64,000 nt of DNA from a virus, in the IMG/VR virus record IMGVR_UViG_3300050821_005035, positions 1 to 64,000 of that record. One strand, 5' to 3'. Shown piece after piece: positions 45,853 to 49,480 of the stretch; the first letter of the stretch is position 1, and the number at the start of each line of letters is the position of its first letter. Both the position numbers and the translations under genes were made by a program. The notes beneath the pieces were generated by a model, which saw nothing but the letters and a program-made list of their open reading frames with translations, had not been told where the DNA came from and ran no database searches.

Positions 45853-46404
45853 TTAAAGTTGTGGCCCGCCGTAGTGAAGGATGTCGTAGAACCGGTCCAG
45901 GAATAACGCCTTGTTCACCCGGAACGATGTCTCCACGATCTTTACATCGGCTGCTACCTTGTCCTTGCTCCACGAATTCTTCCACTCGGTCGTCGGCATG
46001 ATCTGCGCCTTCTCGGCGTAGAGCATCTGATTGTCGATCTCGTGGATTATCTCTGGGTCCTTCTCGTCCAACCCAAACCTGTTGTAAATCATCCCTTGAA
46101 GAGGCCCCTCGATCTTGCGGTATTCGGCGCCTGCGGGCGTGAAATGTTTCAAAGGCCTGTTTACATCGCCTATGTACGTTTCGCTGGCGTCGTGCAAAAG
46201 AAACCGCATCGCGTACCACCTCGGCACAAGATAGCTTCCGAGTCGGCTGTGCTGCGATACCGGGTAAGGAAAGCGGCAGTGTCCGGTGAAACGGTTGCAC
46301 TGGCTCAACGAGTGCGCGATATCCTCGATGCACACCATGTCCGGTGTCGGCTCCAAGATATCGAAGGACAACCCAGTCGATGTAACAATCGTTGCTTGGC
46401 TCAC
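45853..46404 (-). CDS. HD-domain 5'-deoxynucleotidase (YfdR/YfbR-like)
   Basis: IEDIAHSLS..NRFTGH; VSQHS; LLHDASETYIGD. Confidence 0.9.
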   Translation of the reverse strand: MSQATIVTSTGLSFDILEPTPDMVCIEDIAHSLSQCNRFTGHCRFPYPVSQHSRLGSYLVPRWYAMRFLLHDASETYIGDVNRPLKHFTPAGAEYRKIEGPLQGMIYNRFGLDEKDPEIIHEIDNQMLYAEKAQIMPTTEWKNSWSKDKVAADVKIVETSFRVNKALFLDRFYDILHYGGPQL

Positions 46405-46934
46405 TTCGTCTCCAATCTTCCCGCGTACTCCAAACTTACTAGGTCCCAGTACAGAGACAGGGTGTTAATCTTCAGCTGCTCCAGCGTGCCGTTGTTGTCG
46501 ATCACGTAGTTCGCCATCTCTTTCGTCACAGAGCACGATGTCGGCGGCTCCGGGGCCGCGTGCTTGCTGCGGTCGACCCAGATGCTGTAATCGTACAGTC
46601 CCTCTTTGCGTACCGCGTTTAGTTCGGCCTCGCTTCTCATGCCGACGTAGATGTCATTGTCAGCGTAAATTTCCCTAGCGAGTCGCGCGCAGTCCGGCGT
46701 GTTGAAGGCCTTGATCTGCGCGTACCAGTCTTGGCGGTGGTTGACCCGGTCGGCGTAGCACTCGTCCAGGCTGGCGTACGTGATTCCCTTGGATGCGAGG
46801 AACGGTACCATAACCCTCTCGGCGGCGGCGAAGGATGAAGACGCAAACTTAAGCTTCAGACTGTCACGTAATATTTCTGCGACCGTATCTTTGCCGTGGC
46901 GAGCGTGGCCTAAAATCATTAGCTTCAATTTCAT
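46401..46934 (-). CDS. Deoxynucleoside monophosphate kinase
   Basis: GHARHGKDT P-loop; GMR...E; IDNNGT. Confidence 0.8.
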   Translation of the reverse strand: MKLKLMILGHARHGKDTVAEILRDSLKLKFASSSFAAAERVMVPFLASKGITYASLDECYADRVNHRQDWYAQIKAFNTPDCARLAREIYADNDIYVGMRSEAELNAVRKEGLYDYSIWVDRSKHAAPEPPTSCSVTKEMANYVIDNNGTLEQLKINTLSLYWDLVSLEYAGRLETK

Positions 46935-47386
46935 TTAGTCTCCCGATTCCAGTTCACGCCGACGCTTAAGTCTAGCTGAGTAGAACAAGTCTAGCATATG
47001 CGTACCGACTTCGATAGCCTTATTTTCTTTCATCTGGTGCTGCTTCGCCAGGTGCCCGATCAGAGAGAGCGCGAATCCGGTGCGAAGAAACTGGTGACAG
47101 TCCTTGCACTCGATGACGCCGTACCCAGGCAGGTCGATATGCGCGGGCTGGGCCTTGGGTCCAAACATCCAACGGTGAACCATTGATAGCATTTTTCTAC
47201 GCGCCTCTCTTGATTGCTTCTCTGATATCGTTCGGCTCCGAGCAAATCGAGCACGGTACGACCTTGCGCTCCGGGTTCAGGTCGACTACCATCCAGAAGC
47301 CAGCGCACCGTTGACAGCCCAGCTTGCCGTTGAAGTAAATCACGTTCTTGGGTTTCATGTCTCGTTTCGGTCTGCGTTCTTCGCTC
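46935..47386 (-). other. Two small Zn-finger ORFs (46935-47192 C2H2-like; 47197-47386 CxxC-CxxC)
   Basis: CKDC...H...H; CQRC...CSIC. Confidence 0.6.
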
Positions 47387-47996
47387 ATTTCTGTAACCTG
47401 CCCTTTGCCCATGTTTTAGCTGCATGAAGATGACTTGCGTTCTCGCCGTTCTCTTTCAACTGCTTGTATCCCACATCTACCATTTCTACTGCCAACATTC
47501 TTAGCTGCTCAAAATCATCAACAGGCTCGCTCCTGTTCTTCCGTTTCTCTGTATGTGGCTGAGATTTTAGAAGACCAGATGAACTAATTTCGCCTCCCGC
47601 TTTGGTGACGTCTTCGACGTATTTTGCTGCTGTATCCTCTGGTACCCGTGACAGCTTTTGCCAATACTGGGCTGTCCTTTCAGACGTATCGGTCTCTTTA
47701 AGGGCTTTAGAATAAGCACTTTCTACAGGCGCAGCCGTTGCGGGAGTAGATTTTTTCTTGGTAGGCTCTCCGCCCTTTGACTTTTCTAGCTGACCAAGTA
47801 GTTCTCCTGCCCGCCGAGCGGCTAAGAGAGCTATCTCGGCTGCGTAATTCTGAGACTCTCGACCTAGATGAGCAGCCTTAGCATAAACTTTTGCCGCTTC
47901 TGCTACGTCCTTGATCTTGAGGACCTCAGACAAAGTTCTAGATTCTGATAAGGCTAGACGCGCTCTATCAAGTTTTGCTAGTGCGAATTCGCTCAT
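47385..47996 (-). CDS. Helical protein resembling N-terminal domains of phage DNA-methylase-associated proteins
   Basis: AEIALLAARRAGELL; SERTAQYWQKL; ATGA overlap with Mom gene. Confidence 0.5.
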   Translation of the reverse strand: MSEFALAKLDRARLALSESRTLSEVLKIKDVAEAAKVYAKAAHLGRESQNYAAEIALLAARRAGELLGQLEKSKGGEPTKKKSTPATAAPVESAYSKALKETDTSERTAQYWQKLSRVPEDTAAKYVEDVTKAGGEISSSGLLKSQPHTEKRKNRSEPVDDFEQLRMLAVEMVDVGYKQLKENGENASHLHAAKTWAKGRLQK

Positions 47997-48772
47997 GCTG
48001 CCTTCTTGGGGTAAGACCGAATGCCCCAATGTAGGATAGATTTGTCCTGGCTATCTGCAAACCAAACGTACCTGTGTTTTATGCTGCGAGAAACTCGAAA
48101 TACCCTATGCTCTTTTCCAGAGCTATCTGTTAAAACGTCCTTCGAAGCCCACTCGCGTTTGTTTGTTTTCTTAGAAGGCTCCCCGCACTTGGGACAGTTT
48201 CTAAGCAGCGGGATATTCCCGTCTTCTACATAAGGTGAAACAAATCCGCCGTGCTCCCCACACTTGTAAATAAATCCGCCTCGTAGATACTGAGGAACGC
48301 TTCTGTAGTCGACAAAACCCTCGACGGCGATATCTATGAACGGCGTAGATGACCCTGTATAAATCCAATTTGTAGCTTGATAAACATATCCGACATGTCC
48401 CTGCTTACCGTCTGCATAACTGACCAGAATTGCAGAGGGATTCTTCTTTCGGAGTTCCTTCAAACACCAGGCTATGAATCTGCTCTCGCTGTTTCTTGGC
48501 AGGCTGTCATCGAGCCATAGCCTGTTTAATTCATAAACATCGTGTGTCCTAGCCGCTGGATTCTTCATCTGGAGTTTATTTTCTCCAACCAGTCCGCACG
48601 AGGTAGACCATGACGCGGGCTTTCCTATCGTTAAAACACCCTTTGTTTCTTCGCCAATCTTTATACCCCACGCATACGAGATTGGGCATTTTCTGTGAAG
48701 ATAGTGTTTCTCTATCACTAACTCGACTGCTTCTCTCTTCTCTATTTGAACAAAATTAGGATTGGATGTCAA
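47993..48772 (-). CDS. Mom-family (GNAT-fold) DNA adenine modification enzyme with Zn-ribbon insertion
   Basis: KHYLH; ELNRLW; NSESRFI; LVSYAD..GHVGYVYQATNWIYTG; KHRY. Confidence 0.8.
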   Translation of the reverse strand: MTSNPNFVQIEKREAVELVIEKHYLHRKCPISYAWGIKIGEETKGVLTIGKPASWSTSCGLVGENKLQMKNPAARTHDVYELNRLWLDDSLPRNSESRFIAWCLKELRKKNPSAILVSYADGKQGHVGYVYQATNWIYTGSSTPFIDIAVEGFVDYRSVPQYLRGGFIYKCGEHGGFVSPYVEDGNIPLLRNCPKCGEPSKKTNKREWASKDVLTDSSGKEHRVFRVSRSIKHRYVWFADSQDKSILHWGIRSYPKKAA

Positions 48773-49338
48773 ATCCCCTCCCCTGATTCTAAGACGCGAA
48801 CGTGAGGTAGGACTTTCAGTGCAAATTCTTTCCTACCGATCTGGTAATAGCCAGAAAAAAGACGGATTGGATTGAAGTATATGCCTGTTTTCAAATCTAT
48901 GTCGGGGATGTTAGGGTCGGGGATAAGGAGGTCATACTTCGCGCCGTGGGTGCTTTCGGCTACAGTTTTCACGTAATCAGGCGCATTTTCCAGACCTGCG
49001 TCGGACAATTCTCTCTGTGTGGTTTCTACGCTATCTGGAGAAGCGCTGACAGTCAAAATCCAGTTAGAAGATGCTTGAGAAAGCAGTTCGTCCATACCGT
49101 CTTTTGAAAAGTCAACAGGGGCATCAAATGTACTCTCGTTACCCTCGTAGGGAGCATATTTACTAGCGAATATTGGCGTGGTCACAATCGAGCCAGCGAT
49201 TACCCTAATTTTTGACGGCCGGATAGACAGTTGATTTCTTTTAATCCAAAATGGGCCTTTTTCACTATAAATTTGCGCTAGAGATGATGTGAATTGAAGT
49301 ATATCGACCTTTTGCAAGCCGTAATATGCTGTTAACAC
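48769..49338 (-). CDS. Hypothetical protein between tRNA-like gene and Mom
   Basis: GAGG RBS, GTG start, TGA overlapping Mom start. Confidence 0.6.
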   Translation of the reverse strand: MLTAYYGLQKVDILQFTSSLAQIYSEKGPFWIKRNQLSIRPSKIRVIAGSIVTTPIFASKYAPYEGNESTFDAPVDFSKDGMDELLSQASSNWILTVSASPDSVETTQRELSDAGLENAPDYVKTVAESTHGAKYDLLIPDPNIPDIDLKTGIYFNPIRLFSGYYQIGRKEFALKVLPHVRVLESGEGI

Positions 49339-49357
49339 ATGAGCCTCTTTCTAAAAA

Positions 49358-49435
49358 TGGAGCGAAGGGGTCGGAGTTGAACCGCCGTCCGCAGGGGGTT
49401 TAAGCCTGCGTGCTCTACCCTTGAACTACCTCCGC
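49358..49435 (-). tRNA. Atypical tRNA: Gly-type acceptor arm, 9-nt anticodon loop, bulged T-stem
   Basis: GCGGAGG/CCTTCGC acceptor, T73, encoded CCA; D-arm GTTC/GAGC; anticodon stem CGCAGG/CCTGCG around CTTAAACCC; GGCGG-TTCAACT-CCGACC. Confidence 0.85.
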
Positions 49436-49442
49436 ATTTAAG

Positions 49443-49471
49443 ACAATATCACAATCGAGCCTATTTGTCAA
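49443..49471 (-). promoter_or_regulatory. Sigma70-type promoter of tRNA-Mom cassette
   Basis: TTGACA-17 bp-TATTGT with TGn; ends 7 nt before tRNA G1. Confidence 0.8.
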
Positions 49472-49480
49472 GAGTTATTT

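Follow-up and report, generated by a model that had tools for sequence, protein, structure and literature searches.

The Mom enzyme of phage Mu transfers glycine from glycyl-tRNAGly (Gly-tRNAGly) to the N6-adenine of double-stranded DNA (Silva et al., Nat Commun 2026, PMC13219725); this 2026 finding made it the first enzyme known to draw on a charged tRNA for the modification of DNA. All three tRNA-Gly isoacceptors of E. coli serve Mu Mom and Gly-tRNAAla is rejected, with donor recognition probably taking place at the acceptor end; the use of host Gly-tRNA was framed as scavenging of host resources (PMC13219725). In Staphylococcus aureus, the non-proteogenic tRNA-Gly NP1–NP3 are dedicated glycine carriers for the GNAT-fold transferases FmhB, FemA and FemB (Rietmeyer et al., NAR 2021, PMC7826273). 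The Mom family and its tRNA dependence, as well as dedicated tRNA-Gly donors in staphylococci, are already known. Here we examine a 64,000-nt stretch of viral DNA, hereafter the window (positions 1 to 64,000 of IMG/VR record IMGVR_UViG_3300050821_005035), in which a 78-nt tRNA-Gly-like RNA (49358–49435, minus strand) heads an operon containing a Mom-family gene. An earlier note, made from the letters of this stretch, had given as background that Mom uses glycyl-tRNA for its adenine modification and that staphylococci keep certain tRNA-Gly from elongation factor Tu (EF-Tu) for the Fem transferases; both statements agree with these papers (PMC13219725 and PMC7826273, respectively).

Judging from sequence comparisons, we consider it probable that this phage-encoded RNA mimics tRNA-Gly without taking part in decoding, is charged by glycyl-tRNA synthetase (GlyRS) and acts as a private glycyl donor of Mom. 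A strong promoter of its own would drive the RNA, which would come first in an operon that continues with an orphan open reading frame (ORF189), Mom and a helical protein. The host GlyRS would charge it via G1-C72, C2-G71, G3-C70 and U73, as well as via the CCA end and the CC of the loop, and Mom would then move the glycine from the charged RNA to the N6 of adenine in the phage DNA. A bulged A beside pairs 50-64 and 51-63, together with a 9-nt anticodon-like loop, would keep the RNA from EF-Tu and the ribosome, so that DNA modification would not compete with translation. That GlyRS charges the RNA, that it is kept out of translation and that Mom uses it are our inferences; the comparisons described below, which support the proposal, show the anatomy of the locus, the membership of the enzyme in the Mom family and the genetic coupling of this type of RNA to Mom genes across the RNA family.

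A tRNA-Gly-like RNA at the head of a Mom operon

Both the minimum free energy and the centroid folds of the RNA are cloverleaves. The acceptor stem has 7 bp (GCGGAGG/CCUUCGC), comprising G1-C72, C2-G71, G3-C70, G4-U69 and three more pairs, and is followed by U73 and an encoded CCA. The D arm is normal, with GG in its loop; the anticodon stem, of 6 bp, closes the 9-nt loop CUUAAACCC; the variable region has 3 nt; and the T arm (GGCGG-UUCAACU-CCGaCC) contains one bulged A in its 3′ strand. The earlier note had described a bulged T stem and a non-decoding loop, and the fold shows the bulge and the 9-nt loop. The bulge falls at pairs that are contacted by EF-Tu (PMC3239215). The 7-nt anticodon loop of a canonical elongator tRNA is absent from this RNA, as is the regular T stem of 5 bp, and its score with the Rfam tRNA model (RF00005) is 24 bits, under the gathering score of 29. 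ARAGORN calls it a tRNA-Leu(taa). We rejected this call, since a long variable arm is missing and position 73 is U instead of A; the Leu(taa) label is an artefact because ARAGORN forces a 7-nt loop reading.

The identity set of bacterial GlyRS consists of G1-C72, C2-G71, G3-C70 and U73, plus C35 and C36 (PMC7826273). Read from the sequence, its acceptor part is complete in the RNA, and the Gly-type acceptor marks, U73 and CCA reported previously are all present. The RNA had also been described as the only tRNA found. This is true within the 64-kb window, but the 75-kb record contains three canonical tRNAs beyond it, on the plus strand: Asn-GTT (65482–65567), Ala-TGC (66001–66074) and Thr-TGT (66761–66835), with scores of 47–59 bits. 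They are distant from the aberrant RNA and in the opposite orientation (65.4–66.8 kb of the record), and we count this placement in favor of a private donor.

The RNA is preceded by a sigma-70-type promoter (49443–49471, minus strand) composed of TTGACA, a 17-nt interval and TG-TATTGT, which agrees with the consensus at 10 of 12 positions, has a TG before the −10 and is the best-scoring promoter of the region. The end of the −10 hexamer is 7 nt from G1 of the RNA, with a predicted start at G1 or within about 2 nt. The order on the minus strand is the stop codon of a DNA-transfer gene, the promoter, the RNA, ORF189, Mom, the helical ORF and a small Cys-rich ORF. No terminator-like site was found between the RNA and ORF189, in agreement with the lack of a strong terminator noticed before, and the RNA lies 586 nt upstream of the Mom start in the same operon, with ORF189 in between. 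The promoter-led, CCA-ended tRNA-like gene heading an operon is thus in place with all its features at the minus-strand positions given to it originally. The cassette stands out in composition, as had been remarked, with a GC content of 0.44–0.49 over 47.4–49.4 kb vs 0.51–0.58 in the flanks.

The product of the Mom gene (47993–48772, minus strand; 259 aa) is a GNAT enzyme of the Mom family. It matched the Pfam Mom family PF25680 with 135.1 bits (cut-off 27.1, E 3.4e-39), phrog_1384 (“Mom-like DNA modification protein”, E 2.4e-39) and the structure of Mu Mom (PDB 8bv8, E 3.7e-13), which bears out the Mom-like identity assigned from the sequence. Its nearest Mom homologue, P0002, is 75% identical. 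The residues listed as essential in Mu Mom are R111, S124, D149 and R151, as well as H58, Y59 and Y159, and at R151 only the change R151A is reported (PMC13219725). In the alignment to 8bv8, the equivalents of Mu H58, Y59, R111, S124, D149 and Y159 are kept and that of R151 is K.

The window enzyme and Mu Mom have in common the family and most catalytic residues, and the same chemistry is expected of both, namely the transfer of a glycyl group to the N6-adenine of double-stranded DNA followed by rearrangement to the carbamoylmethyl form. The donor of Mu Mom is thought to be recognized at its acceptor end, and it is this end that the window RNA reproduces. The two systems differ in that Mu scavenges host tRNA-Gly, whereas the phage in the window encodes a deformed Gly-type RNA, plus an orphan ORF, in the operon. 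The enzymes are also distant from each other, with the K at R151 and a Cys-rich insertion roughly where Mu has a helix-turn-helix (HTH)-like one. This insertion, in the C-terminal half of the proteins of the window Mom clade (residues ~170–200), has nearly invariant C171 and C193 and a CPKCG motif, and one homologue of the clade carries Pfam PF09723; we take it as Zn-ribbon-like. By our reading, it is placed roughly at the site of the essential HTH-like insertion of Mu Mom, in a segment outside the 8bv8 alignment.

Linkage of the RNA to Mom genes

A search for acceptor closure (GCG, 7-bp closure, then CGC-U-CCA) identified a Gly-type RNA in all three metagenome loci that have an ORF189-Mom module. 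In L084 (1611–1679) and L085 (5502–5570) the RNA lies between the ORF189 homologue and Mom, and in L083 (873–955) it is situated 8 nt past the ORF189 homologue, with Mom 1.7 kb further. The CGACC bulge of the window RNA is common to the three RNAs, which score 52–55 bits with R1, one of two covariance models (R1 and R2) that we built from the RNA family. The RNAs of L084 and L085 differ by a compensatory change of G-C to C-G at pair 6-67.

The viral sequences of IMG/VR were then searched with an RNA-only motif, GGCGG-N7-9-CCGACC-N4-CGCTCCA, which has 18 fixed bases, involves no protein criterion and is matched exactly by the window RNA. It is found in at least 120 IMG/VR contigs, with chance matches estimated at ~5 if the collection has ~6e10 bases, a guessed size. 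Eighty loci were taken from these contigs, and in 72 of them a same-strand ORF of the Mom family touches the RNA; in six of the remaining eight, the locus stops within ~350 nt of the RNA on the usual Mom side. The control motif retained the acceptor end but had a regular T stem (GCGGG-N7-CCCGC). Of 80 control loci among the matches listed, one had a Mom ORF, ~10 kb from the motif (72/80 vs 1/80, Fisher p 9e-35). The RNA-only motif also occurs in contigs of bacterial genomes, where 15 motif loci have an adjacent same-strand Mom and about half of the matches are by chance; the bacteria with both elements range from Micavibrio to Clostridium, Chloroflexi and Planctomycetota. The earlier note had named tRNA linkage among close homologues as a check of its proposal; an RNA of this kind is present in the three ORF189-Mom modules and in the relative phage L156 (described below), and the RNA-only motif places it beside Mom in the 72 loci.

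This linkage largely escapes a standard tRNA finder. From the 80 IMG/VR loci with the greatest likeness to the window Mom, ARAGORN reported only one tRNA-Met and one tRNA-Gly(UCC), and it reported no tRNA in the three metagenome loci with ORF189 homologues. We considered, and rejected, a lack of RNA-Mom linkage as the meaning of these blanks, because ARAGORN calls just 10 of the 80 family members.

The specificity for one enzyme family bears on another possible role of the RNA. Some phage tRNAs counteract host defences that cleave tRNA, and the RNA could be a decoy or a replacement against host defences directed at tRNA, such as tRNA nucleases or GNAT toxins that acetylate Gly-tRNAGly, with a loose tie to Mom. 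Toxins of this kind, such as TacT, do exist (PMC13219725). However, a general decoy should not track a single enzyme family in the way seen in the 72 loci and their control, and family searches of the cassette gave no defence-related match, so we regard this role as very unlikely.

When three family RNAs were compared by blastn with GenBank phages, only generic tRNA likeness was obtained and no cultured carrier was found; the cassette itself gave no match among the same phages. Some loci are arranged in other ways. L165 has two family RNAs in tandem (335–402 and 404–472) at the end of the Mom ORF, and L109, L125 and L155 each have two Mom-family ORFs in tandem. Additionally, a 260-nt contig from a second soil run matches only positions 49353–49386 of the window (T arm plus acceptor), with two differences, and has unlike flanks; it is probably another family member from the same habitat.

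Variation in the RNA family and comparison with known carriers

The family members sampled represent 79 distinct elements that fall into two classes, cloverleaves of ~76 nt and forms of 68–70 nt without a D arm, the latter feature being absent from 37 members. The window RNA is a seed member of R1, with which it scores 62.6 bits. RNAalifold, applied to 39 cloverleaf members, returned a cloverleaf with the bulge, and there are compensatory changes in 13 of 22 pairs, among them pairs of the D stem and the anticodon stem, both left free by the search pattern. The apical anticodon-like loop contains CC in 76 of the 79 members (apical NCC), whereas U33 is not conserved, the loop is of 5, 6, 7 or 9 nt, and the T loop is often without the UUC consensus. 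In the parts free from the pattern, therefore, the GlyRS mark (the apical CC) is kept and the needs of the ribosome (U33 and a 7-nt loop) are not. The CGACC bulge is also present in L030 and L083, which were found by routes other than the RNA motif.

These patterns can be set against the idea of a working translational tRNA, one that supplements tRNA-Gly for phage codons or reads an expanded or unusual codon via its 9-nt loop. Phages often carry tRNAs, the window phage has three, expanded anticodon loops can decode quadruplets, and a few family members have a canonical-looking anticodon loop, CUUCCAG or UUUCCAA. Nevertheless, the Rfam score is under the gathering cut-off, neither U33 nor the loop length is kept, the D arm is missing from the 37 members mentioned, and ARAGORN accepts only the 10 of 80. 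The 9-nt loop is accompanied by a T-stem bulge at the EF-Tu contact pairs (PMC3239215). There is also no translational rationale for the tight linkage to Mom, in which the RNA is unlike ordinary tRNA-Gly genes. A role in decoding is thus highly improbable.

Phage L156 provides a closer comparison. Its DNA-transfer protein is 58% identical to that of the window, its downstream region is syntenic (small Cys-rich ORF, 177-aa kinase-like protein and HD phosphatase), and it has the TTGACA promoter context at the same site followed by a 79-nt RNA. The RNAs are 82% identical, vs 54% for the upstream DNA; pair 7-66 is changed from G-C to A-U and there are three double changes in the anticodon stem, while G4-U69, the CGACC bulge and a loop ending in AACCC are kept. 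The Mom protein of L156, of 237 aa, is of another lineage (36% identity) and is encoded directly after the RNA, without ORF189 and without the helical ORF; the segments compared are L156:2407–3260 and 47385–49480 of the window. The promoter-RNA unit is thus retained and the enzyme cargo behind it exchanged.

The retention of this unit despite the swapped Mom speaks against the RNA being a relic, whether a pseudo-tRNA in decay or a recombination scar from the acquisition of the AT-rich Mom cassette. The RNA does lie at the edge of a compositionally distinct island, it has several defects in comparison with a canonical tRNA, and its fold energy is unexceptional (z −0.97). However, the supposed defects (the CGACC bulge, the AACCC end of the loop and G4-U69) are precisely what L156 keeps, with compensatory changes in the stems and an identity above that of the flanks, and the RNA family is large and covarying. 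We strongly disfavor such an origin, which we would place at the very bottom of the range of explanations considered.

The position of the RNA with respect to the Mom frame is variable. In neither the window nor L156 does the RNA fall within an ORF, whereas in 61 of the 69 other Mom-adjacent members it is wholly inside the stop-to-stop frame of Mom; the share expected from the open frames per RNA is ~55%, and the cases are not independent. These RNAs occupy one end of the Mom frame, either 5′ or 3′. A stop codon follows 2–40 nt after the CCA in about 54 cases, and in about 12 a start codon is situated 10–20 nt before G1. It is mostly one frame that runs through the RNA, reading the T arm and the acceptor as GG(S/A)(I/T)PTxxL; examples are L088:5176–5243, L090:6023–6101 and L134:7035–7110, and also L084:1611–1682. 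Excision of an RNA placed in this manner would cut the mom message.

This arrangement lends some weight to the main rival explanation, a cis element on the mRNA of the mom operon that serves in processing, stability or gating, as opposed to a diffusible donor. It might be, for instance, a cut site for RNase P or RNase Z, or a structure that couples the output of Mom to GlyRS or to the charging status. The mom gene of Mu needs tight translational control, and the RNA invariably shares the orientation of the operon and adjoins it, in the window as a 5′ leader and in the 61 members as part of the frame. On the other hand, a pure mRNA element would not need the combination of an encoded CCA, U73, the first three Gly-type acceptor pairs and an apical CC. 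The position of the RNA is also flexible, being before ORF189, between ORF189 and Mom, at either end of Mom or, in L083, 1.7 kb from it, and therefore fits a trans-acting product better. On balance, a cis role is unlikely, although it is the rival with most in its favor.

Several observations weigh against the RNA being a private donor of Mom, in addition to its unexceptional fold energy and to the in-frame position of most members. The CC(C) of the window RNA is on the 3′ side of the 9-nt loop, outside the canonical 35-36 register, and because of this charging by GlyRS could be poor. The invariance of G1-C72, C2-G71, G3-C70, U73, CCA and the T arm in the RNA-selected sample was imposed by the search pattern and hence is not independent evidence. 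Of the 80 Mom loci chosen for their protein similarity, R1 and R2 find the RNA in a single one, L030; it follows that many Mom genes are without the RNA, although the RNA is nearly always accompanied by Mom. The L030 element (1819–1891), an ARAGORN-visible tRNA-Gly(UCC), has the CGACC bulge of the T stem but no encoded CCA, and is located 2.1 kb from Mom on the opposite strand, a looser linkage. Among the sequencing runs listed as containing the locus there is no RNA run. Lastly, Mu Mom works with host tRNA-Gly (PMC13219725), so a private donor is not a necessity.

A private donor would have a parallel in S. aureus. NP1–NP3 keep the GlyRS marks, have D and T arms unlike those of translational tRNA-Gly and are partitioned from EF-Tu, as we propose for the window RNA (Rietmeyer et al., NAR 2021, PMC7826273). 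They differ from it in being cellular and restricted to staphylococci, with regular cloverleaves and normal anticodon loops, and in not being gene-linked to the transferase; the window RNA comes from a virus, combines a T-stem bulge with a 9-nt loop (in other members the D arm is missing) and is physically joined to the operon or, elsewhere in the family, to the frame of the enzyme. By analogy, it is rather probable that the RNA represents the viral counterpart of the staphylococcal non-proteogenic tRNA-Gly, as a functional analogue and not as kin.

Two other kinds of virus-encoded tRNA are also comparable. Ordinary phage tRNAs (RF00005) are likewise cloverleaf genes in phage genomes that ARAGORN detects; the window RNA differs from these in its score under the Rfam cut-off, its odd loop and T stem, its location apart from the tRNA cluster and its tie to Mom. 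The RNAs of plant viruses carry aminoacylatable tRNA-like structures at their 3′ ends, which act in replication and translation control. Like these structures, the window RNA is a tRNA mimic encoded by a virus, contained in a longer viral transcript and probably charged by a host synthetase; most family members make up the 3′ end of the mom message. These, however, are the genome ends of RNA viruses, whereas the present RNA is of Gly type, belongs to a DNA phage and is linked to a DNA-modifying transferase. A phage-encoded deformed tRNA-Gly mimic gene-fused to Mom was absent from Rfam and from the papers searched; full-text literature searches found no paper describing a phage-encoded glycyl donor for Mom, and a term search of the main text of Silva et al. 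(PMC13219725) gave no mention of a phage-encoded tRNA.

Extending the proposal to the whole family, we tentatively suggest that many phages might encode an orthogonal glycine carrier for DNA hypermodification. Such an RNA, a mimic of tRNA-Gly, would be charged by the host GlyRS, its bulge would serve at once to exclude EF-Tu and to label the RNA for Mom, and it would be the preferred or exclusive donor of the enzyme. In most cases it would be written into the ends of the mom frame, coupling release of the RNA to synthesis of the enzyme, with ORF189 as a further handling factor. If this is true, phages insulate DNA hypermodification from translation, as staphylococci do for cell-wall synthesis, and the elements define a large RNA family overlooked by standard tRNA finders. 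It would also offer a natural orthogonal tRNA/transferase pair for biotechnology and clarify which tRNA features are each read by Mom, GlyRS and EF-Tu.

ORF189, neighboring genes and the source phage

The gene between the RNA and Mom, ORF189 (48769–49338, minus strand; 189 aa), codes for an orphan protein, without a match in Pfam, PHROGs, NCBIfam or PADLOC, as expected from the earlier description of a 189-aa ORF without a known family. Its residues 57–189 are modeled with confidence by AlphaFold (pLDDT, the per-residue confidence score, of about 95 for 60–189). Foldseek found no match in PDB at E <= 0.001, the best Z with VIA-align was 3.8, which gives no fold lead, and the ESM Atlas provided no lead either. 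ORF189 has 12 homologues, making a family of 13 members, and at every locus recovered (L083–L085) they abut the RNA and sit in Mom modules (L083:272–865, L084:989–1597 and L085:4878–5516). None was present in the 80 RNA-selected viral loci, and a similarity search of viral contigs with ORF189, its alignment and the DNA-transfer protein did not identify related loci. The N-terminal ~30–40 residues of the window protein diverge from the family consensus. A frameshift was considered as the source of this divergence and rejected, as none was found; the divergence fits a junction formed as the RNA came to sit upstream. ORF189 may be an RNA-handling factor or an accessory factor of Mom.

The TTG start codon of Mom overlaps the TGA stop of ORF189, and the ATG of the helical ORF overlaps the TGA of Mom (ATGA). 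The translational coupling of the three genes that had been proposed fits their overlapping stop and start codons. The helical protein (47385–47996, minus strand; 203 aa from the ATG at 47996, its likely start) matches phrog_33995 (E 3e-6), a PHROG of unassigned function, and other family searches with it were blank. Its gene is the last of the AT-richer cassette and has no counterpart in L156. The ATG of the small Cys-rich ORF (47197–47388, minus strand) overlaps in turn the stop of the helical ORF (ATGA); since a homologue directly follows Mom in L156, we assign this ORF to the phage backbone and not to the cassette.

The source of the window is a 75,133-nt IMG/VR virus record, 74% complete according to CheckV, of which the window is the first 64 kb. 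The stretch was found in Logan contigs from soil metagenome runs, and the reads of four soil DNA runs mapped to the locus gave an identical sequence, with zero variants. The DNA-transfer (A1-like) protein of the phage has ~45% identity to its counterparts from siphoviruses of Pseudanabaena, Dinoroseobacter and Rhodobacter. Genes for a 177-aa P-loop protein and for an HD-domain protein similar to deoxynucleoside monophosphate (dNMP) phosphatases, both kept in L083 and L156, follow the cassette immediately on its downstream side (45853–46934). The P-loop protein matches phrog_38514 and shows weak matches to dNMP kinase and to phrog_85, which is annotated as thymidylate synthase. The pair points to a remodelling of the nucleotide pool that might go with DNA modification.

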